Positions 7,362 through 27,095 of a stretch of DNA of 27,095 bases are shown one piece after another. Origin of the DNA: a virus (taxonomy: Duplodnaviria; Heunggongvirae; Uroviricota; Caudoviricetes); IMG/VR virus record IMGVR_UViG_2537562194_000033. The stretch is one strand, 5' to 3'. The notes under the pieces were generated by a model, which saw only the letters and a list, made by a program, of their open reading frames with translations, was not told where the DNA came from and made no database searches. The position numbers were made by a program, and so were the translations under genes. The first letter of the stretch is position 1. The number at the start of each line of letters is the position of its first letter.

Positions 7362-7549
7362 AACTGAATCATTTCTCGTTTCTTCTTCTCCGGCTCCGGC
7401 ATCTCAACTTCCTGCCCGGCGTCCAGAAATACCTGCTGACAGAGTCCGGGGTTGGCATCCAGCACCTTTTCGGTGACGCCCTGCGTCGTGCCGTAGTACC
7501 GGAAACAGAGCGAATCCACGGTGTCGCCTTCCAGTGCCTTCACTTTCAT
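7349..7549 (-). CDS. X: tail protein X (LysM-like)
   Basis: Start set to ATG at 7549 (MKVKALEGDTVDSLCFRYYG...LWGK), 66 aa. Close to P2 gpX as recalled. The ATG overlaps the L stop by 1 nt. Confidence 0.85.
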   Translation of the reverse strand: MKVKALEGDTVDSLCFRYYGTTQGVTEKVLDANPGLCQQVFLDAGQEVEMPEPEKKKREMIQLWGK

Positions 7550-8043: not shown

Positions 8044-8057
8044 GGGGTTCACTCCTG

Positions 8058-8129
8058 AAAAAAATCGGGCGGTGGGTGCGCGGTGTAAACGGTCACGGAG
8101 TCAAACCGGAACACCGCGCACGCCGCCCG
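8058..8129 (-). terminator. long GC-rich inverted repeat plus U-run between M and L (putative attenuator)
   Basis: On the minus strand, CGGGCGGCGTGCGCGGTG ... CACCGCGCACCCACCGCCCG (one mismatch, ~26-nt loop) followed by AUUUUUUU, immediately before the ribosome-binding site of L. Confidence 0.4.
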
Positions 8130-8145
8130 CTGACGGGGTCAGTCG

Positions 8146-11059: not shown

Positions 11060-12811
11060 ATGATTCAGGACGCTTTTGTGCGCCAGCGTGCGCGGCAACT
11101 TTACTGGCAGGGTTATCCGCCCGCAGAAATATCACGTCTGATGGGAATAAACCCGAACACGATTTATGCGTGGAAAAAACGCGACCAGTGGGATGAAACG
11201 CCACCCGTGCAGCGTGTCACGCAGTCCATCGATGCGCGCCTCATCCAGCTTACTGAAAAACAGAATAAAACAGGCGGTGATTTTAAGGAAATAGACCTGC
11301 TGACCCGGCAGCTTAAAAAGCTGCATGATGGCCATCCGGATGTGATGGCCGCAGGAAAGAAAGGCCGGGCGAAAAAACTCAAAAATCATTTCACGCCGGA
11401 ACAGATTGCCGCACTGCGGGAAAAAATCATCAACAGGCTGGAGTGGCATCAGCGGGGCTGGTTTGACTCCCTGACCCTTTGCAGGGAAGCCGGGATACGT
11501 AACAGGATGATCCTGAAATCCCGACAGATTGGGGCGACCTGGTATTTTGCACAGGAAGCACTGCTGATGGCGCTGCGTGACGATGTGGCGCAACCTTACC
11601 AGCGTAACCAGATTTTTTTGTCTGCGTCGCGTCGTCAGGCGTTCCAGTTTAAAAGCATTATTCAGAAGGCTGCGGCTGAAGTTGATGTGGAGCTGAAAGG
11701 GGGCGATAAAATCATCCTCTCCAATGGCGCAGAGCTGCATTTTCTCGGCACTTCTGCTGCGTCGGCACAGTCCTATACGGGCAATTTTTATTTTGATGAA
11801 TTTTTCTGGGTCAGTCGCTTTGCTGAACTGCGCAAGGTGGCTGGCGCTATGGCAACCCTCAGCGGACTGCGGCGCACCTACTTCTCCACGCCATCCACCG
11901 AAACGCACGAGGCATACGCCTACTGGAACGGCGACCGCTGGAACGAGAAAAAGGCCTTGCATAAACGCCAGCGTTTTTCTGTGGACTGGAAAACGCTGCA
12001 TAACGGGCTTATCTGCCCTGACCGGACGTGGCGGCAAATTGTCACGCTGGAAGATGTGGTTAATCACGGCTGGAAACACACCGATATCGACGAAATTCGT
12101 GATGAAAACACCGAAGACGAGTTCCTCAATCTCTATATGTGTGAGTTTGTCCGCGAAGGGGAATCGGCATTTAACCTGAATATCCTGATTGGCTGCGGTG
12201 TTGACGGATACGACGACTGGAAAGACTGGAAACCTTTTGCTCCCCGCCCGATGGGGAATCGTCCGGTATGGATTGGGTATGACGCAAACGGCAGCAGTGG
12301 CAACGGCGACAGCGGCGCTGTGTCTGTGGTGGTTCCTCCGGCTGTTCCTGGTGGCCGTTTTCGAACGGTGGAGACGCGACGCGTTCAGGGGCTGGAGTTT
12401 GAAGAACAGGCCAGAGTCATTGAAGAGTTCACGTGTCGCTACAACGTGGAACACATCGGCATTGATGTGACGGGCGGGAACGGGGAGGCTGTTTATCAGA
12501 TAGTGAAACGGTTTTTCCCTGCTGCTATTCCGTACACCTTCACGCTGTCATCAAAACGGTCGCTGGTACTGAAAATGCTGCAAATAATGCGTGCCGGGCG
12601 GTGGGAATACGATCGCGCCGAACGCGAGCTGGTCGCGGCCTTTAACGCCGTGCGTAAGGTGAAAACACCGGGCGGCTTTATCACTTACGAAACGGACCGC
12701 GCGAGGGGGATCAGCCACGGCGACCTTGCGTGGGCAACCATGCTTGCTGTCATTAACGAACCAATTGGCGGCGAAGGAGAAAACGAGCGTTTCACGGTTA
12801 TGGAGTTCTGA
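11060..12811 (+). CDS. P: terminase large (ATPase) subunit gpP
   Basis: 583 aa, ATG at 11060 after GGGGGAG. Contains a KSRQIGAT Walker-A-like motif. Size and position fit P2 gpP. Confidence 0.9.
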   Translation: MIQDAFVRQRARQLYWQGYPPAEISRLMGINPNTIYAWKKRDQWDETPPVQRVTQSIDARLIQLTEKQNKTGGDFKEIDLLTRQLKKLHDGHPDVMAAGKKGRAKKLKNHFTPEQIAALREKIINRLEWHQRGWFDSLTLCREAGIRNRMILKSRQIGATWYFAQEALLMALRDDVAQPYQRNQIFLSASRRQAFQFKSIIQKAAAEVDVELKGGDKIILSNGAELHFLGTSAASAQSYTGNFYFDEFFWVSRFAELRKVAGAMATLSGLRRTYFSTPSTETHEAYAYWNGDRWNEKKALHKRQRFSVDWKTLHNGLICPDRTWRQIVTLEDVVNHGWKHTDIDEIRDENTEDEFLNLYMCEFVREGESAFNLNILIGCGVDGYDDWKDWKPFAPRPMGNRPVWIGYDANGSSGNGDSGAVSVVVPPAVPGGRFRTVETRRVQGLEFEEQARVIEEFTCRYNVEHIGIDVTGGNGEAVYQIVKRFFPAAIPYTFTLSSKRSLVLKMLQIMRAGRWEYDRAERELVAAFNAVRKVKTPGGFITYETDRARGISHGDLAWATMLAVINEPIGGEGENERFTVMEF

Positions 12812-13857
12812 TGAGCAGAAAAAATAAAAAAGTGCGCATGAGTTCACGCATTGATCTCGCTGATGCGCTCAGGAAAGAATCGTCGCTCAGTGCATTCACT
12901 TTTGATGGTCCTTATCGCCTGACCGGGCATGATTTGCTGGACAATATGTACTGTGCTGATAACGGGCGGTGGTATGAAACCCCGGTGGACTGGTACGGTC
13001 TGGCAAGAGCCGCCCGGCAAACGTCCTGGCATCAGTCTGCGCTTTACTTTAAGCGCAATGTATTGCTCGGCTGCTATATTCCGCACCCGCTGCTTTCCCG
13101 GCAGGATTTCTCGGCGCTGGCGCTGGACTGGTTTGTGTTCGGTAACGCATTCCTTGAGCTTCGAAGCAATATGCTCGGCGAACCGCTTAAATTACGGCAC
13201 GCCCTGGCGAAATACATGCGACGCGGAAGCGATCTTGAATCATGGTGGTATGTGCAGGATGGCAAGGATGCGTTTCAGTTTCGCCCTGGCAAAGTGTGCC
13301 ACCTGATGAATCCGGATATTAACCAGGAAATCTACGGCATGCCGGAATATCTTGGCGCATTACTCTCGGCCAGCCTTTCTCATTCGGCGGACATGTTCAG
13401 AAAACTGTATTACGACAACGGATCCCACGCCGGGTGCATCATCTACATCGGTGCAGCGCAGGTAAACCGCGAAAGCATGGACTCCCTGAAAGAAACGTTA
13501 CAGGGTGCGCGTGGTGGTGGTGCATTTAAAAACGTGCTCATTCATGCGCCCAACGGGGGCAAAGAAGGTGTGCAAATTTTGCCGTTCCAGCAGATCACCG
13601 CAAAGGATGAGTTCATGAATGTTAAGGCGGCATCCCGTGATGATGTACTGGCTGCGCACCGCGTTCCGCCGCAACTGATGGGGGCGATGCCGGGTGAAAA
13701 AAGTGCGTTTGGTGATGTGGAGAAGGCCGCGCGGGTTTACGCAATTAACGAGCTGATGCCCGTCATGGAGGCCATGAAGCACATCAATGACTGGCTTGGC
13801 GAAGAGGTGATCCGCTTTAACCCTTACGCACTGTTAGATACCCAGCCCACATCCTGA
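12811..13857 (+). CDS. Q: portal protein gpQ
   Basis: 348 aa, ATG overlapping the P stop (TGATG). Last gene before the cos region, as in P2. Confidence 0.9.
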   Translation: MSRKNKKVRMSSRIDLADALRKESSLSAFTFDGPYRLTGHDLLDNMYCADNGRWYETPVDWYGLARAARQTSWHQSALYFKRNVLLGCYIPHPLLSRQDFSALALDWFVFGNAFLELRSNMLGEPLKLRHALAKYMRRGSDLESWWYVQDGKDAFQFRPGKVCHLMNPDINQEIYGMPEYLGALLSASLSHSADMFRKLYYDNGSHAGCIIYIGAAQVNRESMDSLKETLQGARGGGAFKNVLIHAPNGGKEGVQILPFQQITAKDEFMNVKAASRDDVLAAHRVPPQLMGAMPGEKSAFGDVEKAARVYAINELMPVMEAMKHINDWLGEEVIRFNPYALLDTQPTS

Positions 13858-14349: not shown

Positions 14350-16575
14350 TTACGAACGAATAGGAATTGATGTTTGCGGTTGAATTGGCACGAGCACCTG
14401 ATTATAAGTACGTAAAATTTCGTTATACAGGTCTTGGTGCTTTGATGCCTTAATGGTAATTATAAGAGCATACTTGATTTTTTCTGCCTTATGGCTGGCT
14501 ATGCTTGCACCGGCCTCACGAGCGTTATAATGAATGTCAAATACAGGATTTTTTAGAGTTGAACCTAGCATGTTCTTCGAATTATGTAAGACGGTCTCCC
14601 ATTTGCCCATGTCAGAACGTCGCTCACTTTCAGTTGAATATTTGGCCAGTTCAAAGAATCCCTTGGTTTCAGCATTTTGTTTTCCGTCTTTGATTTTTGA
14701 ATCATTTGGCCGGAATGTCACTTCCAAACCAGCTTTTGTATAGGAAGCTGGGTCTTGTGGATCAGTGGTTGTTGCATAACAGAAAGTTGCCGCTAAGTTT
14801 ATTCTACCTTTCAAGCCACCTTCAGGTATTGGAAGAGAAGCGCGTAAGTATTTTCCTGGTTTCAATTCACCTTGGTAGACGATACGGGCAACACCATCAG
14901 GGCTGACTATAATGTCGTTCAAGTCTTCAGGCAGTTTTCCCCAGCCAACTTCTGTACAAGGATGATCAAGCTGTTTTGACGCATGAATTAACAAAGCTTT
15001 GATTGCTAGTAGGCTCAAATCGTTCCCTAAAATTGCCCGAACACCAACAGCTGCTCGTAAGGCGTAAGGAGAGGCAAAGCTTGTTCCTAGCTGGGGTATG
15101 ATTACAGGCTTCTTACCTTTACCTAAAACATGAAAGTACTCGTCTGTGTCACCACCAAACGCAACTAAATCCGGTTTCATCACGCCAGGACTTCTGCCTG
15201 GCCCAATGGCGCTATATGGTGCTCGTTTCCATTCCGTATCATTAACTGTATCACAAGCACCAACAGCAAGAGCATTAACGCAATCGGCTGGTACTTGAAT
15301 TCTTGCATTACCAGACTTGCGATCCATTTCTCCATTGTTGCCAACAGCAACAGTCATTAATGTTTCACCATCACTTAACAAATCATCAATAACGGAAGTC
15401 CATGCATGAACTTCCGTATCTTCAATTGGTAGGTCTGGACCTAAACTTAGATTGATAAACTGATACTGGCGAGACAACAATACCTCTTCAATAAAGCCCA
15501 AAGTTCGATATAGTTCCAGCGGATCTTCTTGGCAGGTCTTGTTGTCCAAAACTCTTAAGTTATCAATATAAGAGTATGGTCTTTTCGCTTCCGATTTATT
15601 ACTTATTGGTCCAAATAAAAAGGCTGAAGACACAGCTAAACCATGCTCTAAACCGTCTGGATCATCCTCTGCATGATCGTCCAAAACTCTATAGGATTTT
15701 AACCATGGCGATATAGCGTGCTCTGATGGTAAACCACCATCAAGAATCGCAACTTTTATTTCTGAAGATACGGGGCCCTCAGCAGGTAATTTACACTGAG
15801 CTAAAGGACCGTAGTTCCTTTGTATTGGTCTAATCCCACGCAATCTTGGAACCGGTCTTATTACTCGTACAAATGTAAATTTCGCAAGCTTACTAATAGT
15901 AATTCTATCGGCCTGGATTGGCACGAACCATAATGTACCAGCGGTAAAAGCTAATGAAGTATGTACTTTGATGTTCAAATTTGATGCAAACTGAACAAAT
16001 TGTTGCTGAACCAAGTCTTGTTCATTATCTGACAGTAAATGAACACCAACCTCAAAATACGAAGAATCCTGCTCACCAATGGTAATAATACGCTCTTCGG
16101 GTAAATAGGCATCGAACCGTTCTATGCGTGCAAAATCAATCGCTTCGTCAGAAAACTCTTTGAGTCCTGACACCCAATGAGGTAACTCTTTGAAGGATTC
16201 TCTTTTACCAGCAACAAACATTTGTGTCGTAGTTACTTCTGACACAGTAACTTTTCGCTTCCAGCTTTGAGGCGTAATTTTTACCGTCCTGCTGCCAATA
16301 GACGTTAACCCGGTAGACTTAAGCATTTTTGCAGGAAAAAAAGAGCGTGCAATATAGCTTGGATTCAACGTCAACTTAGCCACAGCATAATCATAAGGAC
16401 ATGCCTGACTGGGTAAATCATCAAAATTTTCTATAGTAGATGCAATTTGCGGCAATAAACGTTGTTTCGATTCGTAAAGAGAATAAACCTCAGCTTTTCC
16501 GGGCACTCTTTTAGGACCAGGAATATCGCTGGTTAATAATTCGCCGCGTCCAATCAGAAAATTAGTTTTCGCCAT
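14350..16575 (-). CDS. S8 subtilisin-like serine protease with uncharacterised N- and C-terminal domains (IetS-like?)
   Basis: 741 aa, ATG at 16575 with AGGAG 6 nt upstream. Catalytic motifs in canonical order: D279 (VAILDGG), H311 (LEHGLAV), N413 (VAVGNNGE), S499 (LGTSFASP). Flanked by ~265 aa N-terminal and ~200 aa C-terminal regions with no motif I recognise. AT-rich relative to the phage core. Confidence 0.85.
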   Translation of the reverse strand: MAKTNFLIGRGELLTSDIPGPKRVPGKAEVYSLYESKQRLLPQIASTIENFDDLPSQACPYDYAVAKLTLNPSYIARSFFPAKMLKSTGLTSIGSRTVKITPQSWKRKVTVSEVTTTQMFVAGKRESFKELPHWVSGLKEFSDEAIDFARIERFDAYLPEERIITIGEQDSSYFEVGVHLLSDNEQDLVQQQFVQFASNLNIKVHTSLAFTAGTLWFVPIQADRITISKLAKFTFVRVIRPVPRLRGIRPIQRNYGPLAQCKLPAEGPVSSEIKVAILDGGLPSEHAISPWLKSYRVLDDHAEDDPDGLEHGLAVSSAFLFGPISNKSEAKRPYSYIDNLRVLDNKTCQEDPLELYRTLGFIEEVLLSRQYQFINLSLGPDLPIEDTEVHAWTSVIDDLLSDGETLMTVAVGNNGEMDRKSGNARIQVPADCVNALAVGACDTVNDTEWKRAPYSAIGPGRSPGVMKPDLVAFGGDTDEYFHVLGKGKKPVIIPQLGTSFASPYALRAAVGVRAILGNDLSLLAIKALLIHASKQLDHPCTEVGWGKLPEDLNDIIVSPDGVARIVYQGELKPGKYLRASLPIPEGGLKGRINLAATFCYATTTDPQDPASYTKAGLEVTFRPNDSKIKDGKQNAETKGFFELAKYSTESERRSDMGKWETVLHNSKNMLGSTLKNPVFDIHYNAREAGASIASHKAEKIKYALIITIKASKHQDLYNEILRTYNQVLVPIQPQTSIPIRS

Positions 16576-16598
16576 ACATACTCCTTATCTATGCTGTA

Positions 16599-17720
16599 TT
16601 ACATTTTTTGACTGTATTTTCTAATTGTATCCCTACTGACTCCGGTTAAGTCTGATATGGCATGCTGGGATAATTTAGAATTTCTTTTTAGAGTAACTGC
16701 AATTTCTTTACGTTCATTCCTGTCTAATTCTGATAAACCATCTTTAATGAACGACCCAATCAACTCTTCATCTGAGGAAATACCTAAAGCGACCGAACGT
16801 CGGAATTTGTTGATAGAACGCTCAATATTACTAAAAGATTCATTTTTGAACATAATAGCCAGTAGATCTATCCAACGTGCAAAAATCGCGTAGTCGGGAC
16901 CCGAAAAGCGTTTAATTGCTTCTTTAATACTTTCGCTATCTGGCTTCTCAAAATTGAGCACTAAATCAAAACGTCTCCATAGTGCTGGATCAATCAACTC
17001 AGCGAAGTTAGTTGCAGCAAGTAGCAAACTAGAAGACGGCCATTCGTCAACCTCCTGGAGTATCACGGTAACAAGTCTTTTTAATTCTCCAACATCAGAA
17101 TCATCACTTCTCTTTTTGGCGATTGAATCAATTTCATCTAACAGAAGAACGCACGGCCCTTTCTTCGCAAAATCTAGAGCTGCCCGAAGGTTATTTCCGC
17201 TTTTGCCCAGATAGCTGCTCATTACTGCCGTTAAATCAAGAACGTAAAAAGGAACCCCTAATTTCTGAGCTAACCAGCTTGCCGTAAGTGTTTTACCGAC
17301 ACCCGGAGGGCCAACAAAAATGGCAGAGCGTGTTGGTTGTAAGCCGAGAGTCTTGAGGCGATCGATGTGCTTCCGCTCAAGAATAATTTGATCCAGTGAG
17401 TCTTCTATCTGACTGGACAGTAGAGGTTTGCTCACAATCTTTTCATTTGGTGCTTTAAGCAAGGTAAGCCTTGACTCCTCGTCCACAGGCATGGTTTGAG
17501 GCAGCGCTTGTTTTGGTGCGGTAACCTTACGCAGGCTTTGTGCAGGCTTTTGCGGTTTATTTCGTAGATAAAGATCAAGCTGCTCGGATAGAGCAGGCAT
17601 AGTTTCCCGATATTTACGCACCAAGCGAGCGACATATAACCGAACGTCATCATACTGTTCAGTTATTACCAGTCTAACTAGTTGGGCTAAATCTGACTGA
17701 ATACCACCTAAGTCGCCCAT
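16599..17720 (-). CDS. AAA+ ATPase with C-terminal HTH-like tail (IetA-like?)
   Basis: 373 aa, ATG at 17720 with AAGAGG upstream. Walker A GPPGVGKT (K143), Walker B VLLLDEID, sensor-1 AATN, RR at 249-250. The last ~25 aa (SKLSQHAISDLTGVSRDTIRKY) look like a helix-turn-helix. Stop is 23 nt before the protease start, so the two are an operon. Confidence 0.85.
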   Translation of the reverse strand: MGDLGGIQSDLAQLVRLVITEQYDDVRLYVARLVRKYRETMPALSEQLDLYLRNKPQKPAQSLRKVTAPKQALPQTMPVDEESRLTLLKAPNEKIVSKPLLSSQIEDSLDQIILERKHIDRLKTLGLQPTRSAIFVGPPGVGKTLTASWLAQKLGVPFYVLDLTAVMSSYLGKSGNNLRAALDFAKKGPCVLLLDEIDSIAKKRSDDSDVGELKRLVTVILQEVDEWPSSSLLLAATNFAELIDPALWRRFDLVLNFEKPDSESIKEAIKRFSGPDYAIFARWIDLLAIMFKNESFSNIERSINKFRRSVALGISSDEELIGSFIKDGLSELDRNERKEIAVTLKRNSKLSQHAISDLTGVSRDTIRKYSQKM

Positions 17721-17900: not shown

Positions 17901-20666
17901 TTATTTTTTCTTCTCGCTATTGCCTTTGTCCTGCAACAGACCCGCCTTGTGACGTGCGCGTTCAGTGGTTTCATTGATTCTCTGTGCGTGCTCTGCGTCA
18001 CGGATGGCGCGCAGCATGTCAGAAAGCACGGTAACGGGGGGGTTCATGGTGTTCTGGTCCTGCTGAAGTGTGGATACCAGGCGTGCGGCGGCTTCGGGGT
18101 CTGATGCCCCCAGCTGTTCCAGATAGCTGGCGACCGGGTTATGGCGGATCTCCGTGCTGCTTACGCCGTGATTACGGCTCAGGCGCTGCCAGAGCTGCGT
18201 GATTCGGCTGTCCGGGCGGGTATCCGGTTTGCGTACAATTTCAAATCCCTGCGGTGCAATGATGCTGCCGTCAACGTACAGGCTGCCGCCCCGTAACAGG
18301 TGCTGCATCTGCTGTTCACCGATATGCAGGCCGAGAGATTCAGCAGATTCCCGCCATTCTTTAGCGAGTAATTCGTGGTTATCAGGCAAAGGCCGCTGCT
18401 GTTTGCGGCTCTGTGTCCAGCTCTGCATTTCATCACTGCTGTTTTTTGCCTGTTTGTCACGCAGCGAACGCATCAGCGCCCGGCGTTCGTGCCGTTTCAG
18501 TGAGCGCATCCATTCGTTCACTTCAACGCCGTCAGGGAGCTGCGGCCACGGTGCTGGCCGTTCTTCCGGCTGTTCTGCCCCGTTGTTGTCCGTTTCCTGT
18601 ACACGGGGACAGTTATTGCCACGAGTCCAAGGGGCGGCAGGGCCGCCCTGAAGGTCAAAACCATTTTCGCGGGCGCTGTCTTCCGTTTCCGGTTTACGTC
18701 TTACCAGTTTCCAGTTATCCGGATGCGTGCACACACGGGAGGATTCCCCGATGAGTGGTGACCAGATCCCGTAAATCTGTACGCTCTGTTCGCCGTAATC
18801 ATTCAGCTCATCTGCGAGGTCGTAGGCGGTGCGAATCAGGTAGTCTTTGCGTGGAACAAGTACGCCGCCCTGTTTTTCAATGTAGGAGGCAAAACACCCG
18901 GCATCAGCGGCAGCGAGTACCGCATCCATTGCATCATCCTTCAGCCGTTGCGGGCCTTCCGGGTTGCGTGCCATCTGGCTGGCAAGGCGGCGGAGTTCAC
19001 GCCATACCTGACGGGAGGGGATGCCAAAGAACTGGAACTGGCGGACCCGATGAAGACGCGCCCAGCCAATGGCGCGCTCCACGCTCTCGGCCATTGATTT
19101 TCCGGTTTCGTGGTCAACGCGTGGCTTGCCCGTTTTCGGGTCGATGCCATCTACGGCGCGGCTGTCCAGGTTTTTTCCGATGTAGGTCGCGATATAGCTG
19201 GTTGGTGTGCCTTTTGAGCCGTCGACATACTCCGCCTTAAAGCGCGGAGTAATATCATCGCCCAGTTCGTGACGATCTTCCTGAATGGCAATATCGCGGG
19301 TGATGGCCACGATGCTGTCGATTTCTTCCGGATGAGCAAAGACCATCATATGCCAGTGCACGGTGCCGTCATGGTGAGGCTCCACCGTGCGGATGCCATA
19401 CCAGCGCAGGCCGTCGCGGTTCAGTTTTTTGCGGACCGCCGCAAAAAACGTGTTAACCAGGTAATCGCTGGAGTCGCGCATGGTGGCCCCGTTCCATTTG
19501 GGGTTCGGATGACCGTTCTCCGTTGTTGCGTGGTATTTTGACGGGCAGGTGACAGTCAGAAACACCGCTTTGTCACCACGGGCTTCGGCCAGAAGTTCCA
19601 GCCCCTTCATGGTGGCCATCATTTCTGCCTTACGGTGAACCGGGTTACTTACTCCCGCGTAATACACTGTCTCGAGATCAATCGTGAACCCGTCTTCATT
19701 TTCCAGCATGAAACTTTTCAGGAAATCGCGTGTTTTCTCGCGCTGTGCGCGAAACTCGCTTAACGCGTCCTGGCTCAGATAGGGCGATGTTTTTCTGGAA
19801 ACCAGACAGGCGGCGCGGAGTTGTTCTTCTCTCCACTCGCAACGTAACAGCCACAGTTTGCGTTTCCACCATTCCGCACAGGTCAGGCGAAGGATTGCGC
19901 CCGGCAGCAGCTCCGTGTCCGGTTCGTTCCTCCGGTCTTTGTCTGTTGTCAGTGCGTCATAATGTGGAGGCATGGCGTGCAGGTGTAACGCCATGCGGGC
20001 CAGCATCTGATACGCCTTCAGCGTTACATCCATGGTCAGTTCGCCATCGGTCGCGCCAAAGCCATCGCAGAGTTTTTCGAAGGTGCTGCTGAACATCGCC
20101 GCCGTCATGGTGGCCAGTGTCTGTATCTGGTGTTTGTTGAGCTGCGGCAGGTAAAGCAAATCGTCCAGGCGTTCGCGTCCGGCAAGGGAGCGATAACCCT
20201 GTGTCAGCCAGCGGTGATCGGTGCGCTCCAGACGTTCGAATATTTTGCGCAGGTTTCCGCGCGCGTAGCGTTCAGCCTGCCAGCTCTTTTTGCCTTTCTG
20301 ACGATCGGCTTCCTGTTTTTTGCGCAGGAAGGAGAGGTGGCGAATAAGCGGATCGCGCAGATAGGACGGCAGCAGGCGCAGCGAGGCCATGGCTTCATCC
20401 ACCGCGCCGCGTGCCTGTTTTCTGGCATCTCCTGCCAGTGTGATGGTTTTGTCCTGTTTTTCCTGTGCGTCCAGGCTTTTATTAATCAGGTTGCCCAGCG
20501 GCGTTGCGGAGAACGCCGCATCAGCCATTTCCTGGCGGCGCTCGTTCTCTACCCGGTAGGCATCCAGCCAGGAGGAAAGCGCGGATTCAGGAGCGGGGAT
20601 CCCCGTTCCTTCACGCCCCACTGCGTGGCGCGGTTGTTGCCAGTCCCTGATGTACTCTGCCGTCAT
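17901..20666 (-). CDS. A: replication initiation endonuclease gpA (rolling-circle initiator)
   Basis: 921 aa. Contains HHDGTVHWHMMVFA (HUH-like metal site) and YIATYIGK (catalytic Tyr region), as expected for the P2 A family. Confidence 0.9.
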   Translation of the reverse strand: MTAEYIRDWQQPRHAVGREGTGIPAPESALSSWLDAYRVENERRQEMADAAFSATPLGNLINKSLDAQEKQDKTITLAGDARKQARGAVDEAMASLRLLPSYLRDPLIRHLSFLRKKQEADRQKGKKSWQAERYARGNLRKIFERLERTDHRWLTQGYRSLAGRERLDDLLYLPQLNKHQIQTLATMTAAMFSSTFEKLCDGFGATDGELTMDVTLKAYQMLARMALHLHAMPPHYDALTTDKDRRNEPDTELLPGAILRLTCAEWWKRKLWLLRCEWREEQLRAACLVSRKTSPYLSQDALSEFRAQREKTRDFLKSFMLENEDGFTIDLETVYYAGVSNPVHRKAEMMATMKGLELLAEARGDKAVFLTVTCPSKYHATTENGHPNPKWNGATMRDSSDYLVNTFFAAVRKKLNRDGLRWYGIRTVEPHHDGTVHWHMMVFAHPEEIDSIVAITRDIAIQEDRHELGDDITPRFKAEYVDGSKGTPTSYIATYIGKNLDSRAVDGIDPKTGKPRVDHETGKSMAESVERAIGWARLHRVRQFQFFGIPSRQVWRELRRLASQMARNPEGPQRLKDDAMDAVLAAADAGCFASYIEKQGGVLVPRKDYLIRTAYDLADELNDYGEQSVQIYGIWSPLIGESSRVCTHPDNWKLVRRKPETEDSARENGFDLQGGPAAPWTRGNNCPRVQETDNNGAEQPEERPAPWPQLPDGVEVNEWMRSLKRHERRALMRSLRDKQAKNSSDEMQSWTQSRKQQRPLPDNHELLAKEWRESAESLGLHIGEQQMQHLLRGGSLYVDGSIIAPQGFEIVRKPDTRPDSRITQLWQRLSRNHGVSSTEIRHNPVASYLEQLGASDPEAAARLVSTLQQDQNTMNPPVTVLSDMLRAIRDAEHAQRINETTERARHKAGLLQDKGNSEKKK

Positions 20667-20672
20667 AGTGAT

Positions 20673-21038
20673 TTACTTCGTCATGCCATTCAGGGTGTCG
20701 CGGCAGACTGTAGCCAGCCGCTGAATTTCCAGCACGGTGTCTTCTGTGTCGGCATGGCGATGTGTGATGCGGATGCTGTCGGCAATCACATCGACGATTG
20801 CAGAGGATGGGCGCTGGTAAATGCCAATAACGGACGGGGTGCCACCTTCAATGCGGTAAAGCCTGTAATTTCCCTCGTGGCTGTCAATCATGTAGCGACC
20901 ATCAATAACAATCTTTCCGTCAGCGAGCTGCGGTACAGGCAGGGATTTCAGGTACATGTCATAACGATCACGCACGCGAGCGGCAAGATCACGTTCTGTG
21001 TTGAGCAGGTATTCAAGAAAGTCGTTGGCGAGAATCAT
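20673..21038 (-). CDS. hypothetical early-operon protein
   Basis: 121 aa, ATG at 21038, stop 7 nt before the A start. Position matches the small orfs upstream of A in P2-like phages. Confidence 0.6.
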   Translation of the reverse strand: MILANDFLEYLLNTERDLAARVRDRYDMYLKSLPVPQLADGKIVIDGRYMIDSHEGNYRLYRIEGGTPSVIGIYQRPSSAIVDVIADSIRITHRHADTEDTVLEIQRLATVCRDTLNGMTK

Positions 21039-21110
21039 TGCGGCAATCCTCTTGTTACAGATGTGCGAAGGCCTCCCGCCGCAAGGTGCAGGAAAGGCCC
21101 GGAACAGGAG

Positions 21111-21341
21111 TTAATGGAGTTTGTTTTGCTGCTGGATGAGCTGTTGAAGCTCGTGCAGATCATCCGCCAGATAGCTGAAAACAGAGGCGGAATAAATGTT
21201 TGATAGTGCGTGGCTGCGCTCATGCAGCATATTGATGTGCATGATTTGCGCGACGCGTGATGCGCGGGAAAGTCTGCGGTTGATTTCAGTCTGGATGTGA
21301 CGACGCTCCGCGATAGCGCGGTGTGGTTTGCGGTTTGCCAT
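21111..21341 (-). CDS. hypothetical basic protein (Arg/His-rich)
   Basis: 76 aa, ATG at 21341 with GGGG upstream. Function unknown. Confidence 0.5.
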   Translation of the reverse strand: MANRKPHRAIAERRHIQTEINRRLSRASRVAQIMHINMLHERSHALSNIYSASVFSYLADDLHELQQLIQQQNKLH

Positions 21342-21443
21342 GGTGTGGCCCCTTGTGTAGTAAGTTGTGAAAACTCACCATCCAGAGCTGCGAAACTGTG
21401 GGGGGCGAGACGTACGAGGTTCGCAGTACCGGCTACACAAGAA

Positions 21444-21462
21444 CCCGGCCCGACCGAAGTCG
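21444..21462 (-). ncRNA. UUCG-tetraloop hairpin inside a structured non-coding island
   Basis: On the transcribed (minus) strand, CCGAC-UUCG-GUCGG with flanking GG/CC extension, sitting in a 320-bp non-coding gap (21342-21663) rich in dyad symmetry. Confidence 0.35.
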
Positions 21463-21530
21463 GCCCCGTACGCCCCGCCATAATTCTGACGCGAAAAAAA
21501 CGTGGCAATACAGTACGCACAAAAAAACCG

Positions 21531-21551
21531 CTGGCGCGGTTGTGCGCTTGT
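21531..21551 (-). terminator. putative intrinsic terminator/attenuator within the early operon
   Basis: On the minus strand, ACCGC-GCCA-GCGGT followed by a 7-U run (the A run at 21531-21537 on the plus strand). The stem is short. Confidence 0.35.
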
Positions 21552-21663
21552 GTAGTCAGCAGGCTGCGAAACCCGGCACCCGTTTTGTGAGGTGCAGCGG
21601 AAATGTAACCTGACTGATTGCGGCATGGCAAGCGGTTTTTTTGTGTGTGCATGTTCTGGTTTC

Positions 21664-21963
21664 TTAGTGGTTCAGAAAAAAATCAAAAACCTTGTCAATG
21701 CGTTGCAGCAGCTCTTGCTGTATTGCTTCCGGCGTTTCCGGTTCGCCTGGCGCCTCCAACGTCGCGCAGAAATCCTCGATTTCATGACGGAGCGTCAGGC
21801 GAATGGCGAGAGGTGTGGTTCTGGCGTGCTCCAGCTCATCCAGCAGCGCCAGCACAGCAGACGGCGAGAGCATTGCGCGAAACGCCAGTAATTTTTGAGG
21901 CGTTGCCATTCGTTGCAGGTCAGTCGCCAGTTCGCGTAATTCCTGGTGGTTGATGGCGCTCAT
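21664..21963 (-). CDS. hypothetical early protein
   Basis: 99 aa, ATG at 21963 overlapping the upstream stop (ATGA). Confidence 0.55.
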   Translation of the reverse strand: MSAINHQELRELATDLQRMATPQKLLAFRAMLSPSAVLALLDELEHARTTPLAIRLTLRHEIEDFCATLEAPGEPETPEAIQQELLQRIDKVFDFFLNH

Positions 21964-22205
21964 GCTCTGGCTTCCTTTAGTAGCTGGTTAAACATGTTGG
22001 TAAGTGGATTGCCGCACCCGAACGGCATCGGGTTTATCTGGTAAGAAAAGCGACCGCCTGTTTTGCGCTCTTTTCTTATGACTGAACCGCTGCGCCAGAG
22101 TCGGCGTAACTCCGCATTAATGGCTGTGGTTGGGGTATTCAGTGCTGCGGCGATTTCTCCACCACTACACCCCGGATTGGCGGCGATATAGTCCAGAATG
22201 GTCAT
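21960..22205 (-). CDS. hypothetical small protein, possible winged-helix DNA-binding
   Basis: 81 aa, ATG at 22205 overlapping the upstream stop (ATGA). Contains an HTH-like GEIAAALNTPTTAINAELRRL segment. Confidence 0.55.
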   Translation of the reverse strand: MTILDYIAANPGCSGGEIAAALNTPTTAINAELRRLWRSGSVIRKERKTGGRFSYQINPMPFGCGNPLTNMFNQLLKEARA

Positions 22206-22405
22206 CTGCGTGACTCCTGTACCTGTCGGATAAGGTTCACCCGCACCACATTCGTGGCGCAGAAGTAAGTGCCGTCAGTGAGATAGATGTGATGTGCATC
22301 CTTTTCTGAACGGTGTTTGTCGATTGTGGTAATCAGGCGTTCGTCGACTTCGTATTCACGCCCTCTGGAGGTAAAACGAACGACAGGAAAATGCTTAATT
22401 GCCAT
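22202..22405 (-). CDS. hypothetical early protein
   Basis: 67 aa, ATG at 22405, in the translationally coupled chain. Confidence 0.5.
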   Translation of the reverse strand: MAIKHFPVVRFTSRGREYEVDERLITTIDKHRSEKDAHHIYLTDGTYFCATNVVRVNLIRQVQESRR

Positions 22406-22490
22406 TACGCCTCCTTGGCGTGTGCGAATACCTCCGCGAATGCGGATTGTTTTACATTTTCTTATTTAATCTGTGGTTTTATTTGCTCTG

Positions 22491-22604
22491 TTATTCGCCA
22501 GTGAAAAAGCGTTCAATCTTTTTTATTGAATGAATAATTCGCATAATCCCAATAGCGCAGGCCACCGAAATAATCAGAACAAGCCATGAGATAAATATAC
22601 TCAT
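22491..22604 (-). CDS. small hydrophobic peptide (37 aa), not in ORF track
   Basis: ATG at 22604 overlaps the stop of the upstream gene (ATGA). Translation MSIFISWLVLIISVACAIGIMRIIHSIKKIERFFTGE is a single transmembrane helix with a basic tail. TAA at 22493-22491. Confidence 0.45.
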   Translation of the reverse strand: MSIFISWLVLIISVACAIGIMRIIHSIKKIERFFTGE

Positions 22605-22843
22605 GCGATATTCCCCAGCTTATACGGTTCAATATGTTCCCCGCACTCTGCGGCACAGATCAGCTCGGAAAGTTCGTTAAGTGCATCCAGATCATCAGCG
22701 TAAAAAGCCACGTCATACAGACTTCGGATTGCTCTGGTCAATGAGTCACGGGCCGCACGTTCAGCATGAGCGCCTGATGCACTTAAGCGAAAATAAAAAC
22801 GCTCAAGTGCTTTGTTAATGAGAGTTTTATATTCTTTGCCCAT
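22601..22843 (-). CDS. hypothetical early protein
   Basis: 80 aa from ATG at 22843 (the track start at 22846 is a GTG). Confidence 0.55.
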   Translation of the reverse strand: MGKEYKTLINKALERFYFRLSASGAHAERAARDSLTRAIRSLYDVAFYADDLDALNELSELICAAECGEHIEPYKLGNIA

Positions 22844-22854
22844 CACAACGCCCC

Positions 22855-23142
22855 TTAATCTGCTTTCTGTATTTCAGCTTCTGAATCCATACAAATAATT
22901 TCGATATAGGGTTCATCGCCATTAACCTGGCGTGCCTTTTCAGCTTCGCTAATGATTTCTCGTACGGTCTGGTACGGAAGTTCCACAAGCAGTCGCGTGC
23001 CGTTCAGATAAACGTAAGTGGCTTCGTCGGCTCCGTTTTTACCCGCCGGAGTTACTCCGTCAATAGCGGATGCACGTAATAACAGTTCACCGCGAAAATC
23101 AATAAAACGGATAAATACACCTTGTGCATGGTCTTTGGTCAT
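22855..23142 (-). CDS. hypothetical early protein
   Basis: Start set to ATG at 23142 (MTKDHAQGVF...), 95 aa, with AGGTG upstream. The longer track ORF from 23256 would overlap the upstream gene by about 100 nt. Confidence 0.55.
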   Translation of the reverse strand: MTKDHAQGVFIRFIDFRGELLLRASAIDGVTPAGKNGADEATYVYLNGTRLLVELPYQTVREIISEAEKARQVNGDEPYIEIICMDSEAEIQKAD

Positions 23143-23152
23143 AAAGCACCTG

Positions 23153-23494
23153 TTATAAATCAGCCTGTTTAATAAAACTTTGCCCGCGAAGCAGACGATC
23201 AACCGTGCGAAGTGCTTCGTATAATGTGAAATCCTGCCCGAACTGATTGTCGCCACTGCTTAGAGCAAAAATGCGGTTTCCGGTAAACGGATTGCGTGGG
23301 CATTTGTGGATCACGATTCCAGCTTTCTCAATCAGCCAGGCATGCTCGCCGATTTGTTTTACTGGGTAGCCATCCGGCGTTGCGTGTGTATCACTCAGGC
23401 TGTAGCGGATGTTGCTGCGTGATGCACTGGTAGCAAAACGGTTAGCGTGGCGTTCTGCACCATTGCGAAAGCGTGAATTACGTTGCTGTTTCAT
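23153..23494 (-). CDS. hypothetical early protein
   Basis: 113 aa, ATG at 23494. Confidence 0.55.
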   Translation of the reverse strand: MKQQRNSRFRNGAERHANRFATSASRSNIRYSLSDTHATPDGYPVKQIGEHAWLIEKAGIVIHKCPRNPFTGNRIFALSSGDNQFGQDFTLYEALRTVDRLLRGQSFIKQADL

Positions 23495-23495
23495 G

Positions 23496-23603
23496 TTAAA
23501 GACTCTGTACAGATTTAATTATTCCGGCATAGAGGCCGAACTCAAAATATTTGCGATTAAATCGCATCGCATTGTTTTCACGTTTTGCGGACTGCTGGTT
23601 CAT
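23496..23603 (-). CDS. possible small protein (35 aa), not in ORF track
   Basis: ATG at 23603 with GGAGG 9 nt upstream. The stop is 1 nt before the next gene's ATG. Translation MNQQSAKRENNAMRFNRKYFEFGLYAGIIKSVQSL. Confidence 0.35.
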   Translation of the reverse strand: MNQQSAKRENNAMRFNRKYFEFGLYAGIIKSVQSL

Positions 23604-23746
23604 TTTCGTTTGCCTCCGCACATGAGAATTGCGCCGCTTAAGAGGTAACCGAAGTTAATTGATAGTATTACAATTAACATAAGGTCCAATTTGTCCATGC
23701 CACACATAATTACCCTCATTGCAGTAGTTGTGGGTTGTCAGGTTTC

Positions 23747-23953
23747 TCACCCGATAAACCAGATAACAAACGCTATAAACATCGCCCCAATAGCTGCCGG
23801 GAAAAGTCCTTTGGTATAAGCGGCGATATATTCAATGCTGAGTTCAATAAAGCGTTCTTCATGTCCCGTTAACTTGCGAAACAAATAGATCTCTATTACG
23901 CCTATCTCAATAAAAACAAGGGTCAGAATGGCGCTGATGATATGGCTGGTCAT
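23747..23953 (-). CDS. small membrane protein (2 predicted transmembrane helices)
   Basis: 68 aa, ATG at 23953, 6 nt after the cox stop. Strongly hydrophobic (ILTLVFIEIGVIEIYLF, AAIGAMFIAFVIWFIG). Confidence 0.6.
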   Translation of the reverse strand: MTSHIISAILTLVFIEIGVIEIYLFRKLTGHEERFIELSIEYIAAYTKGLFPAAIGAMFIAFVIWFIG

Positions 23954-23959
23954 TTATGA

Positions 23960-24149
23960 CTAAAGTCCCAGCCACAACAACCATGCGTCGCGGCGTTCTT
24001 TCGGTTGCTCAAAAAACGCTTTGCGCATGCCTTCGTTAAATGCTGGCAGATATACCCAGTTTTCTGATGCACGCGTCTTTACTGAACCTGGTTTCACAAA
24101 GTCAATTGTCGGTAGCTTTGCTGCGTCAATCATGGTTCTGACTGTGGAT
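23960..24149 (-). pseudogene. cox: cox (excisionase/early repressor) 3' fragment, separated from its 5' part by an IS insertion
   Basis: Joining 25560-25460 to 24149-23960 and removing one copy of the GAT duplication gives an intact 95-aa ORF: MSESELGGFIQVAPYPLEAVPYQLFAKMIGRKESTVRTMIDAAKLPTIDFVKPGSVKTRASENWVYLPAFNEGMRKAFFEQPKERRDAWLLWLGL. It resembles P2 Cox as recalled. Confidence 0.8.
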
Positions 24150-24203
24150 TGAACCGCCCCGGAAATCCTGGAGACTAAACTCCCTGAGAAAGAGGTAAAC
24201 AGG

Positions 24204-24530
24204 ATGACTAAAAATACTCGTTTTTCCCCCGAAGTCCGTCAGCGGGCGATTCGTATGGTTCTGGAAAGTCAGGATGAATATGACTCACAGTGGGCGGCAA
24301 TTTGTTCCATTGCCCCAAAGATTGGCTGTACGCCGGAGACTCTGCGTGTCTGGGTTCGCCAGCATGAGCGGGATACCGGGGGCGGTGATGGTGGGCTCAC
24401 CAGCGCTGAACGTCAGCGTCTGAAAGAGCTGGAACGTGAAAATCGTGAACTGCGCCGCAGTAACGATATCCTTCGCCAGGCTTCCGCTTATTTTGCGAAG
24501 GCGGAGTTCGACCGCCTCTGGAAAAAATGA
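24204..24530 (+). CDS. IS3-family transposase OrfA (HTH and leucine-zipper part)
   Basis: 108 aa. The -1 frame relationship to orfB at the A6 run (24522-24527) fits the programmed frameshift typical of IS3-family elements. Confidence 0.9.
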
Positions 24531-25417
24531 TGCCACTGCTGGATAAGCTGCGTGAGCAGTACGGGGTCGGACCGGTATGCAGCGAACTGCATATTGCCCC
24601 GTCAACGTATTACCATTGTCAGCAACAGCGACATCATCCGGATAAACGCAGTGCCCGTGCGCAGCACGACGACTGGCTGAAGAGAGAGATACAGCGCGTA
24701 TACGATGAAAATCATCAGGTGTACGGTGTGCGTAAAGTCTGGCGTCAGTTGTTACGGGAAGGAATCAGGGTGGCCAGATGTACAGTGGCACGTCTCATGG
24801 CGGTTATGGGACTTGCCGGTGTTCTCCGGGGTAAAAAGGTCCGTACGACCATCAGCCGGAAAGCCGTTGCCGCAGGCGACCGCGTAAACCGTCAGTTCGT
24901 GGCAGAACGACCTGACCAGCTGTGGGTGGCTGATTTTACTTACGTCAGCACATGGCAGGGCTTCGTCTATGTGGCGTTTATCATTGATGTGTTTGCCGGA
25001 TACATCGTGGGGTGGCGGGTCTCATCGTCTATGGAAACGACATTCGTGCTGGATGCGCTGGAGCAGGCGTTGTGGGCCCGTCGTCCGTCTGGCACCATCC
25101 ATCACAGCGATAAAGGCTCTCAGTATGTGTCACTGGCCTATACGGAGCGACTAAAAGAAGCCGGATTACTGGCATCAACAGGGAGTACAGGCGACTCGTA
25201 TGACAACGCGATGGCTGAGAGCATCAATGGTCTTTACAAAGCGGAGGTAATACACCGTAAGAGCTGGAAAAACCGTGCAGAAGTGGAACTGGCCACACTA
25301 ACGTGGGTGGACTGGTATAACAATCGACGATTGCTGGGAAGGCTGGGCCATACTCCTCCGGCAGAAGCAGAAAAAGCTTATTATGCTTCCATCGGAAACG
25401 ATGATCTGGCAGCCTGA
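24527..25417 (+). CDS. IS3-family transposase OrfB (DDE catalytic domain)
   Basis: 296 aa with an rve-type integrase core (WVADFTYV...HSDKGSQY...[14 protein letters not shown]). Confidence 0.9.
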
Positions 25418-25459
25418 GTTCACAGATAAAACACTCTCCAGGAAACCCGGGGCGGTTCA

Positions 25460-25560
25460 GATTCCTTGCGGCCGATCATCTTGGCGAATAGTTGATATGG
25501 CACCGCTTCAAGTGGATATGGTGCTACCTGAATGAACCCCCCAAGCTCTGATTCGCTCAT
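25460..25560 (-). pseudogene. cox: cox 5' fragment
   Basis: ATG at 25560 with GGGAG 9 nt upstream, encoding MSESELGGFIQVAPYPLEAVPYQLFAKMIGRKE up to the IS junction. Confidence 0.8.
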
Positions 25561-25673
25561 TGTGGTAATCTCCCTAATTCGTTCGAATGGCTCAAAATGG
25601 CTTATATCGGCTTATTTGAGTGTTTTTATGTTTGTGCCCGATGTGGCATGTTGCGATGGAGGATATGCCCGAT
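25561..25673. promoter_or_regulatory. early control region between cox and C (face-to-face promoters and operator repeats)
   Basis: 113-bp gap between divergently oriented cox and C. Contains 15-bp direct repeats TGCCCGAT(G/A)TGGCAT at 25635-25649 and 25666-25680, plus shorter AATGGCT and GGCTTAT direct repeats. P2 C repressor is known to bind direct repeats. Promoter hexamers were not assigned. Confidence 0.5.
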
Positions 25674-25994
25674 ATGGCATCTTTGTCAAGCATGGGTGAA
25701 AAATTTCGCCTGATTCGTGAAGCAGAAGGTATGACCCGCCAGGAGTTTGCGGATTGTGTTGGGCTGCCTTATGGGACGGTAACTAACTATGAGGTGAGGG
25801 GGAAGCAAGTAACAGAGGGTGCCTTACTTAAGGTTACGAAACACCCTAAATTTAAGAAGTATGCTTATTGGTTATCAACAGATGAAACGATGCCGGAGGT
25901 CGGGCAAATTTCTCCGGCTCTCTCTCTTGATGGTTCCTGCAATTCGGAGGGAGATCGCGTTTCAACCGAAACAATCCAAAAATTATCCCGCTGA
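25674..25994 (+). CDS. C: immunity repressor C
   Basis: Start set to ATG at 25674 (MASLSSMGEKFRLIREAEGMTRQEFADCVGLPYGT...), with GGAGGA 10 nt upstream. The HTH region and PKFKKYAYWL / GQISPAL blocks resemble P2 C as recalled. The track ORF begins at an upstream GTG. Confidence 0.8.
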   Translation: MASLSSMGEKFRLIREAEGMTRQEFADCVGLPYGTVTNYEVRGKQVTEGALLKVTKHPKFKKYAYWLSTDETMPEVGQISPALSLDGSCNSEGDRVSTETIQKLSR

Positions 25995-26090
25995 GGCCAG
26001 AAAACTGGTTAGACCTGCTTTTTGTCTGGTCTGATTATTGCTGGAAAGAGGCTGGAGAAATTGTAGAGCGGTTCATTGGAGGGCTTCGTA

Positions 26091-27095
26091 ATGTCGATTA
26101 AGAAGCTCGAAGATGGTCGTTATTTGCTGGACATCAGGCCGAACGGACGCAAGGGAAAGCGCGTGCGTAAGGTATTTGACAAAAAATCGGTAGCGGTGGC
26201 CACTGAACGCTACATCATGGCGAACGCTGAAAAGCGGGAATATATACAGGGCTACCGTGATCGTCGAACGCTAAATGATTTGCTTGAGTTGTGGTGGATG
26301 TATCACGGCCAGCACAGGCGTAAGGCGGAAGAAGACCGAAAACAACTGCGCAACATAATCAATGAGCTTGGCGCTGATATGCAGGCTGTGGATCTTGATA
26401 AGCTGAAAATTATCGCGTGGCGTTCTCAAAAGATAGCTGAAGGATTGAAACCGTCATCTGCTAACAGGTACATGAATCGGTTATCCGGAATGTTTACCGT
26501 GCTGAAAAAAATAGGTCTTTGGGATGCAGAACATCCAGTAAGGGGAATTTCTATTCTTTATGTATCTCCACGAGAAATGGCGTTCCTGTCACAGAAGGAA
26601 GTGGCGCTATTGCTCGATACACTGGAGGGCGACTACTGGCGTGTTGCGCTTTTGTGTTTAAGCACAGGGGCGCGCTGGAGTGAAGCTTGTAAGCTTCGTG
26701 GTGAACAGATAGTTCATAACCGTGTAACGTTTCTTGAAACCAAAAATGGCCGGAAGAGAACAGTGCCAATTTCGCAGGCAGTTTGTGAGGCGATCAAAAC
26801 CAGAGAAACAGGCGGCTTGTTTGAGGTGAAGTACCGGGAATTCTGCCTGGCGCTGAAAAGAGTTAAGCCCGATTTACCAAAAGGCCAGGCTGCACATGTG
26901 CTGCGGCATACGTTCGCCAGCCATTTTGTGATGAACGGAGGAAACATTATTGCGCTTCAGAAGATTCTTGGTCACGCAACCATTCAGCAAACAATGGCAT
27001 ATGCGCATTTTGCACCGGATTACCTGCAGGATGCGGTGGCCCTTAATCCGCTGAAAGGTGGCGTAAGTGTCCACGCAGTGTCCACGGGGGATTAA
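26091..27095 (+). CDS. int: tyrosine integrase (P2 Int family)
   Basis: ATG at 26091 (MSIKKLEDGRYLLDIRPNGRKGKR...); the track ORF starts at an upstream TTG. C-terminal catalytic motifs HVLRHTFASHF and ILGH...YAHF. The stop codon TAA is the last 3 nt of the window, so the att site lies just outside. Confidence 0.9.
   Translation: MSIKKLEDGRYLLDIRPNGRKGKRVRKVFDKKSVAVATERYIMANAEKREYIQGYRDRRTLNDLLELWWMYHGQHRRKAEEDRKQLRNIINELGADMQAVDLDKLKIIAWRSQKIAEGLKPSSANRYMNRLSGMFTVLKKIGLWDAEHPVRGISILYVSPREMAFLSQKEVALLLDTLEGDYWRVALLCLSTGARWSEACKLRGEQIVHNRVTFLETKNGRKRTVPISQAVCEAIKTRETGGLFEVKYREFCLALKRVKPDLPKGQAAHVLRHTFASHFVMNGGNIIALQKILGHATIQQTMAYAHFAPDYLQDAVALNPLKGGVSVHAVSTGD

Follow-up and report, generated by a model that had tools for sequence, protein, structure and literature searches.

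An IS629/IS1203 copy splits the cox gene of a P2-like Xuanwuvirus prophage in an O111-type Shiga toxin-producing Escherichia coli lineage

In phage P2, the Cox protein is needed for excision of the prophage and for repression of the Pc promoter, and phage release from P2 cox3 lysogens is ~10^4-fold lower than when these lysogens are supplied with wild-type cox (PMC3936717). Insertion sequences (ISs) in the prophage genes carried by Shiga toxin-producing strains of Escherichia coli (STEC), as well as prophages immobilised by the loss of an excision factor, are well-documented kinds of event (PMC3271280, PMC2669165). Here we describe a 27,095-nucleotide stretch of viral DNA (IMG/VR record IMGVR_UViG_2537562194_000033; the whole stretch is hereafter called the window), which we assign by its gene content and relatives to a P2-like myovirus of the genus Xuanwuvirus (Peduoviridae) integrated in an O111-type STEC lineage. 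Its cox gene is split by one complete copy of IS629/IS1203. We consider it likely that this prophage, which is otherwise whole, is held in the chromosome with its lytic switch lost and its early operon probably silenced by polarity, and that it still confers immunity and carries its cargo genes.

The closest described systems differ from this locus in several respects. P2 Cox (structure 4LHF) and its cox2, cox3 and cox4 mutants have the Pfam family and the gene position in common with the cox gene studied here, and the structural alignment covers P2 residues 9–87; the mutants set a precedent for prophages unable to excise or to release phage (PMC3936717). However, the Cox of this prophage is 56% identical to that of P2, its N-terminus is 8 residues longer and its genus is Xuanwuvirus, not Peduovirus; furthermore, the lesion, an insertion and not a missense change, should also have a polar effect on the replication genes. 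Prophages Sp4 and Sp14 of strain Sakai, which have a defective Xis, are not excised alone and are amplified only via the replication of neighbouring prophages (PMC2669165). They are likewise prophages of enterohemorrhagic E. coli (EHEC) with an integrase but without a working directionality factor (PMC2669165); in contrast to the present prophage, where one IS is the sole visible lesion, they are lambdoid, their Xis lacks DNA-binding motifs and they carry several other defects. The IS600 copy in lacZ of STEC O121:H19 is also an IS3-family element that inactivates a gene, is found throughout a lineage and can be removed by the IS-excision enhancer (IEE) (PMC9397093, PMC9943667). On the other hand, reversion of the cox allele was not observed, and a 7-bp scar and a 6.3-kb deletion in other samples (see below) are suggestive only.

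With regard to the element, IS629 target duplications of 3–4 bp have been reported, 62% of the IS629 copies in O157 are located in prophages, and the published surveys found no target preference (PMC3271280). The IS1203-type elements of strains 95JB1 and 95NR1 belong to the IS51 group of the IS3 family and are 99% identical to IS1203 (PMC6602927). The copy described here is like the IS629/IS1203 of STEC in length, sequence identity, orfA/orfB frameshift, ALIL pseudoknot, ends, duplication and location in a prophage. The element itself is no different from known IS629 and is particular only in its target, where several independent insertions lie within 3 nt of one another.

The IS629/IS1203 copy in cox and its carriers

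The element spans 1310 bp, from position 24150 (TGAACCGCCCCGG...) to position 25459 (...CCGGGGCGGTTCA), as read directly and computed. Its left inverted repeat (IRL, 24150–24174, + strand) adjoins the 3' part of cox and the remaining early operon, and its right inverted repeat (IRR, 25435–25459, + strand) adjoins the first 34 cox codons and the Pe/Pc switch region. The two repeats match at 22 of the 25 end positions, the first 13 of which are perfect, and the ends have the form TG...CA (TGAACC...GGTTCA). The trinucleotide GAT is present on both sides of the element, at 24147–24149 on the left and at 25460–25462 on the right, in place of the single GAT held by IS-free genomes. The original prediction, made from the letters of the window alone, had placed a 1310-bp IS3-family element with imperfect terminal inverted repeats and flanking GAT copies at this locus; its boundaries were right to the base, and the transposase domains, the ALIL element and the full-length matches described below agree with its family assignment.

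Given that a 3-mer match alone has a chance of 1/64, the empty site was taken as the decisive evidence. When the window was aligned with the IS-free strain SA31-1, the left flank extended to 24150 (corresponding to position 22001 of locus L006) and the right flank began at 25460 (L006 21998), so that the flanks overlapped by 4 nt, consisting of GAT and a T that belongs equally to the flank and to the IS end. Formally, a 4-bp duplication (GATT) could be read, a small ambiguity that arises because the IS begins with T and the right flank goes on with T; with canonical TG...CA ends, a length of 3 bp is the natural reading. The reconstructed empty site was 100% identical, over 1400 bp as well as over 3633 bp, to dozens of complete E. 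coli genomes of unrelated sources. Among the 60 best matches of the 3633-bp reconstruction, 57 were uninterrupted, and the other three, namely 95NR1, 95JB1 and the O111:H8 strain 8B, were longer by exactly 1313 bp. Deletion of the IS together with one GAT copy gave an uninterrupted 288-nt open reading frame (ORF) on the minus strand that runs from 25560 to 23960 and encodes 95 amino acids (aa), as had been proposed; when both GAT copies were kept, the frame was still open and encoded 96 aa with an extra Ser. The comparison with IS-free strains of the same prophage, in which the empty site is identical and the SA31-1 flanks overlap by GAT, is in full agreement with the proposed insertion. These results show that one complete IS copy transposed cleanly into cox with a 3-bp duplication.

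The complete copy (24150–25459, + strand) had many full-length matches of 100% identity in genomes of O157:H7, O111 and other E. coli, and copies covering at least 80% of the element are present in 3043 of 5426 complete E. coli genomes. Identical copies are named "IS3-like element IS1203 family" by RefSeq, whose annotations come from the Prokaryotic Genome Annotation Pipeline (PGAP); IS629 and IS1203 are names for one group of elements. The element encodes orfA (24204–24530, + strand, 108 aa), which carries a helix-turn-helix (HTH) domain (Pfam HTH_Tnp_1, 47.3 bits) and matches positions 1–86 of the NCBIfam profile transpos_IS3, and orfB (24527–25417, + strand, 296 aa), which overlaps orfA in the −1 frame and carries the DDE/rve catalytic domain. 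Specifically, orfB matches Pfam rve (96.9 bits), HTH_21 (66 bits) and also rve_3, and scores 316.3 bits on transpos_IS3 (cut-off 160). The frameshift-stimulating ALIL pseudoknot of IS3-family elements (Rfam RF01497) was found as a full-length match at 24485–24601 on the + strand, where it spans the orfA/orfB overlap, with 121.5 bits against a gathering score of 50, and PGAP annotates a programmed frameshift in the identical 95NR1 copy. The length expected of the IS3 family (about 1.2–1.55 kb), the TG...CA ends, the two-ORF frameshift and the 3–4 bp duplication were thus all found. Judged by its sequence, this is an ordinary IS629/IS1203 copy that has identical, active-looking counterparts elsewhere.

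We next consider the interrupted gene. The restored 95-aa product matches Pfam Phage_Cox (PF10743) with 79.9 bits (cut-off 27.5) over profile positions 5–87 of 87, and its residues 17–95 align with residues 9–87 of the solved P2 Cox structure 4LHF (E = 3.5e-26); the equivalents of P2 Cox W81 and W84 are kept in its WLLWLGL motif. Two isolated phages, Escherichia phage PhiR44_2 and Xuanwuvirus P884B11, encode Cox proteins that are 100% identical to it. As in P2, cox is the first gene of the early operon, running on the minus strand from 25560, and is divergent from C and int, which are both on the + strand. Sequence, structural homology and gene position all place the interrupted gene in the Cox family, as the original prediction held for the 95-aa frame, and its activity is assigned by homology.

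As it stands, the gene consists of a 5' fragment with codons 1–33 and part of codon 34 (25463–25560, − strand), whose ORF runs on into the IS to 25420, and a 3' fragment from the rest of codon 34 to the stop codon (23960–24149, − strand), which encodes the DNA-binding helix alpha2, the wing and the oligomerisation helices. The first of these reads as a 46-aa chimera composed of 34 Cox residues and 12 residues from the IS end (EPPRVSWRVFYL), and this product is annotated in 95NR1 and 95JB1. The break lies in codon Ser34, which corresponds to Gly26 of P2 Cox in the 4LHF alignment; in the P2 structure, this is where the chain turns from helix alpha1 into the DNA-binding helix alpha2. Downstream of the break come the wing, alpha3 and alpha4, with the oligomerisation helices. 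Point mutations in alpha2, in the wing and in the C-terminus, alanine changes among them, inactivate P2 Cox, and so does a stop at codon 70 (PMC3936717). Function is not expected of either fragment, because the break separates alpha1 from alpha2 and P2 mutants in the downstream parts are inactive. Note that RefSeq lists in 95NR1 a 68-aa "Cox family DNA-binding protein" (L001 20311–20517), which starts 17 nt inside the left end of the IS (window 24150–24166); this call is an annotation artefact of the split gene.

The same IS junction is found in three independently assembled complete genomes (95NR1, 95JB1 and O111:H8 8B). The window differs from 95NR1 at 76 positions that fall into five clusters in the late genes and gene A (4263–4992, 5876–8512, 11251–13410, 18516–18849 and 19875–19971), with no difference from 19972 to 27095. 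The window comes from none of the three genomes and represents a fourth carrier of the same allele, and the clustered differences are patches exchanged by recombination since the insertion. A census with chimeric queries that joined the switch region to the IS in either orientation found three genomes with the same orientation and none with the opposite one, though such queries miss genomes that have at least 40 IS copies, for example OkiPb01713. Scans of viral and metagenome contig collections for the exact junction pattern gave no match. The carrier genomes are public, and RefSeq already annotates the IS and the truncated Cox in them; in full-text searches on IS629 with P2-like prophages and cox, and on the two Adelaide strains, no paper describing the allele was found.

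Predicted effects on excision and on the lysis switch

The proposed course of events begins with transposition of the IS629/IS1203 copy into codon 34 of cox in a Xuanwuvirus prophage integrated at pdxB. Neither Cox fragment would bind DNA or oligomerise, and with them both the excision directionality factor and the Pc repressor would be lost. Without Cox, the integrase would not be directed to excision and Pc would not be shut off, so that the switch would stay lysogenic, as reasoned from P2. Transcripts from Pe would cross ~1.3 kb of untranslated antisense IS before they reach the replication genes; since cox translation ends just inside the IS, polarity is expected on the small early genes and on gene A, and the early operon would probably be silenced. 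The net outcome would be a chromosome-held prophage that still gives immunity and carries cargo; C, int, the genes of the IetAS anti-phage pair and the late-gene ORFs in the window are intact. IEE can excise IS3-family elements, either restoring genes or deleting flanks (PMC9943667, PMC9397093), and the block may be reversed in this way or may go on to deletion. That the prophage is "probably locked in", as originally put, is a reasonable inference from P2 genetics. It should be noted that P2-type repressors have no SOS-cleavable domain (PMC2669165), and mitomycin C alone would therefore be a weak and non-decisive test of induction.

Several other explanations of the locus were weighed. IS copies are a classic cause of misassembly, and one such repeat might have been misplaced into the prophage; however, identical junctions in three complete long-read genomes from two countries, together with the 3-bp duplication at both junctions, leave next to no probability for such an artefact. 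The IS might also have landed without functional consequence in a prophage already dead from other lesions. This would fit the O157 data, in which 62% of IS629 copies lie in prophages and many of those prophages are degraded (PMC3271280, PMC2669165), as well as the shortened gpD with an adjacent pseudogene fragment that PGAP lists in 95NR1 and SA31-1. We nevertheless regard a previously dead prophage as improbable: the gpD ORF is full length (413 aa), the FI–U genes have the same orientation in free P884B11, the ORF lengths in the window are as in SA31-1, many IS-free prophages have a 100% identical early and immunity region, the restored Cox matches that of isolated phages at 100% identity, and both att cores are present in 95NR1.

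A different possibility is that the IS acts as a mobile promoter whose outward end drives either the early operon or the truncated Cox, or else C and int. IS3-family right ends carry an outward −35 element. The original prediction had held that the outward-reading end lies next to the early operon, and this part was not supported: the transposase genes, on the + strand, run away from the distal early genes and in the direction of C and int, and it is the IRL, not the end with the outward −35 element, that faces the distal early genes. No sigma-70-like hexamer pair was found across either IS junction in a strict scan or in a lenient one (8 of 12 positions), and the + strand from orfB to C showed no terminator-like site. 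Given that the transposase genes point in the same direction as C and int with no terminator before C, any read-through would favour the repressor and the integrase, not the early genes. A weak terminator-like hairpin in the IRR on the minus strand was within chance expectation and was not used. As for the truncated Cox, PGAP places the start of the 68-aa Cox ORF inside the IRL, which would suit an IS-driven product; however, this ORF has a non-ATG start and no visible ribosome-binding site, and an HTH cannot arise in a Cox protein that lacks the turn and helix alpha1 (PMC3936717). Taken together, we judge a promoter role of the IS very unlikely. Somewhat less remote, although still doubtful, is a leaky or reversible prophage, which would receive Cox in trans from another P2-like prophage or would lose the IS through frequent excision by IEE. 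Complementation between prophages is common in EHEC (PMC2669165), IEE, which is found in O111:H8, reactivates IS-disrupted genes (PMC9943667, PMC9397093), and a 7-bp deletion with 2-bp microhomology lies exactly at the IS site in another sample, as imprecise excision would give. On the other hand, the cox/C/int region occurs in one place each, with no second copy, in 95NR1, 95JB1 and 8B, Cox proteins are specific in that the Cox of W-phi fails to complement P2 cox3 (PMC3936717), and the allele is stably common to at least four genomes.

We thus favour a prophage that is held in place by the loss of Cox and is otherwise whole, and several points weigh against this. Both the loss of excision and the polarity are inferred, and the Cox requirement is carried over from P2 to a protein that is 56% identical. 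In EHEC, other prophages often help those with predicted defects to be excised or packaged (PMC2669165), and 95NR1 holds further P2-like sequence in three places. IEE, known from O111:H8 (PMC9943667), could rid a subpopulation of the IS. Moreover, the att sites and the FI–ogr part of the prophage are outside the window, and att was seen in the relative 95NR1. If the favoured reading is right, the locus would be one more example of an IS turning STEC prophages into fixed chromosomal cargo, here comprising immunity, the anti-phage system IetAS and genes of the hok toxin type and of the TagO-like type. With a single lesion in an otherwise complete prophage and with natural IS-free sisters, the Cox requirement in a peduovirus other than P2 would be directly testable.

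Further insertions and deletions at or next to the same cox bases

At least 1000 contigs encode a 95-aa Cox with exactly this sequence, indicating that intact alleles are the rule. Besides the O111 allele of the window, in which the cox sequence ...GGAATC is followed by the IRR, two O145:H28 assemblies (GEF73408.1, GEI61469.1) carry a 49-aa product that agrees in every residue with the predicted translation of a junction between cox ...GGAATC and the IRL of an IS629 variant (protein match, P0002). The junction nucleotide is the same as in the O111 allele and the orientation is opposite, which means that the O145:H28 allele did not come from the O111 allele by descent or by inversion between IS copies. 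A third allele was found in a bovine commensal assembly (GCA_005391945.1; P0021, L007 3001–3256), where cox ...GGAATCCAC is followed by TGAACTGCCCC, 3 nt further in, and where the IS end is again that of a variant (TGAACTG...). With these alleles, at least three independent insertions of IS629-family elements lie within 3 nt in cox, one of them in the opposite orientation, and suggest an apparent micro-hotspot; the same few cox bases were struck independently in other cattle-associated E. coli lineages.

We estimate the chance of three independent insertions in a 4-nt span of the ~210-nt detectable stretch at about 1 in 1000, a figure that refers to a handful of assemblies found via N-terminal Cox fragments and not to an unbiased survey. 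Likeness of the target to the IS ends was 14/20 beside the site and 9/10 at a distance of 70 nt, neither of which was significant against shuffled sequences. In OkiPb01713, a match to the left junction was tried as a further case of the same allele and rejected, because it belongs to a separate IS629-family copy (L004 4173–5482; window equivalent about 25632) that lies in the cox–C intergenic region with its own GTT duplication. Its insertion point separates the candidate Pe from the start of cox, it has the same orientation as the copy in the window, and cox is intact.

Two other samples show deletions at the same place. A contig of the metagenome ERZ1313433 (L011 2590–2615) has a 7-bp deletion, GGAA[TCCACAG]TCAGAACC, that abuts the IS insertion point with 2-bp microhomology and leaves the scar GGAATCAGAACC. 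In assembly GCA_022325365.1 (L008 3090–3250), 6.3 kb are missing between cox codon 33, 4 nt ahead of the IS site, and a point 31 nt beyond the gene A stop codon, which corresponds to window positions 17871 to about 25466. Here the microhomology is 4 bp (AAGG), the whole early operon is lost and the truncated cox is fused to the upstream region of IetA. Both the 7-bp scar and the 6.3-kb deletion look like products of IS excision by end joining.

If clustering within 3 nt is confirmed, it would be the first defined target preference of IS629, and the adjacent scar and deletion alleles would document a path from a grounded prophage to a remnant. One could go further and regard cox codons 33–35 as a true hotspot of IS629-family elements that, with IEE, provides a recurrent and partly reversible host-side "parking brake" on Xuanwuvirus prophages integrated at pdxB; insertion would ground an IetAS-carrying prophage, and excision would free it or leave scars and deletions that fix it. 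We put this forward tentatively, as an idea more probably wrong than right by a wide measure. Of all the findings, only the apparent micro-hotspot with its excision-like derivatives might surprise a specialist.

As a separate observation, two metagenome contigs (L009 300–330 and L010 933–1121) break cox after ...GCAAAGCTA, at codon Leu45, where one of them joins an invertase-proximal region and the other joins ogr. These may be real remnants or chimeric assemblies.

Prophage context and neighbouring genes

Late genes of P2 type and order, the int–C–cox switch and the replication gene A are present, according to the annotation of the near-identical prophages of 95NR1 and SA31-1. On the right of the IS lies the homologue of the immunity repressor C (25674–25994, + strand, 106 aa), which is intact and gives a weak HTH_3 match; this HTH protein is identical in IS-free and IS-bearing genomes. 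It is followed by an intact P2-type tyrosine integrase (26091–27095, + strand; Pfam Int_N 82.7 bits, Phage_integrase 81.2 bits), which is 100% identical to the SA31-1 copy and whose stop codon is the end of the window. A candidate early promoter Pe directed towards cox (TTGACA-18-TATCCT; 25660–25689, − strand) is the only sigma-70-like site in 23700–25800; it lies where Pe would be expected and is proposed from its consensus match. Downstream of cox, the early operon (17901–23953, − strand) comprises small ORFs, DUF4761 and DUF4754 genes and the replication endonuclease gene A (17901–20666), as seen from the ORFs and from the 95NR1 and SA31-1 annotation.

In the IS-free SA31-1, the same prophage is found at an identical chromosomal position, with identical protein accessions, an annotated 95-aa Cox and 14 substitutions over 20.5 kb relative to 95NR1. 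The ORF lengths in the window all equal those annotated in the SA31-1 prophage. A second lesion in gpD, which PGAP gives as 266 aa plus a pseudogene fragment, was tried and rejected, since the ORF is full length with a maximum of 413 aa.

In a region outside the window (L003 2861–8446), FI-FII-E-T-U lie on the strand opposite to H/G and D/ogr, unlike in P2. An inverted FI–U tail block was considered as a further lesion and rejected, since the free phage P884B11 has the same arrangement, which indicates that this order is native to Xuanwuvirus. The prophage and P884B11 agree in gene order, down to the inverted FI–U block, the invertase of the tail fibre and, beside attP, the genes of hok, zinc-ribbon and TagO-like type. 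Unlike this prophage, P884B11 and PhiR44_2 are free, viable phages with an intact cox.

The integration site is the 5' end of pdxB with the core AAAATCCTTGTTGA(T/G)GAAAA, both att copies of which are present in 95NR1, outside the window. Direct repeats of 18 nt or more that might mark att were sought and not found, and the att cores were located by aligning both 95NR1 prophage junctions with the attP region of P884B11. The prophage provides a replacement pdxB N-terminus (L001 23570–23680, L002 16690–16960, L005 26734–27071), also outside the window. The hok/mok-like, zinc-ribbon and TagO-like genes that lie between ogr and attP are phage genes. Finally, the anti-phage defence pair of IetS (S8 peptidase, 741 aa) and IetA (AAA ATPase, 373 aa) is encoded at window positions 14350–17720 on the minus strand, in a cargo hotspot between the replication gene A and the portal gene where P884B11 has ParA/ParB-like genes.

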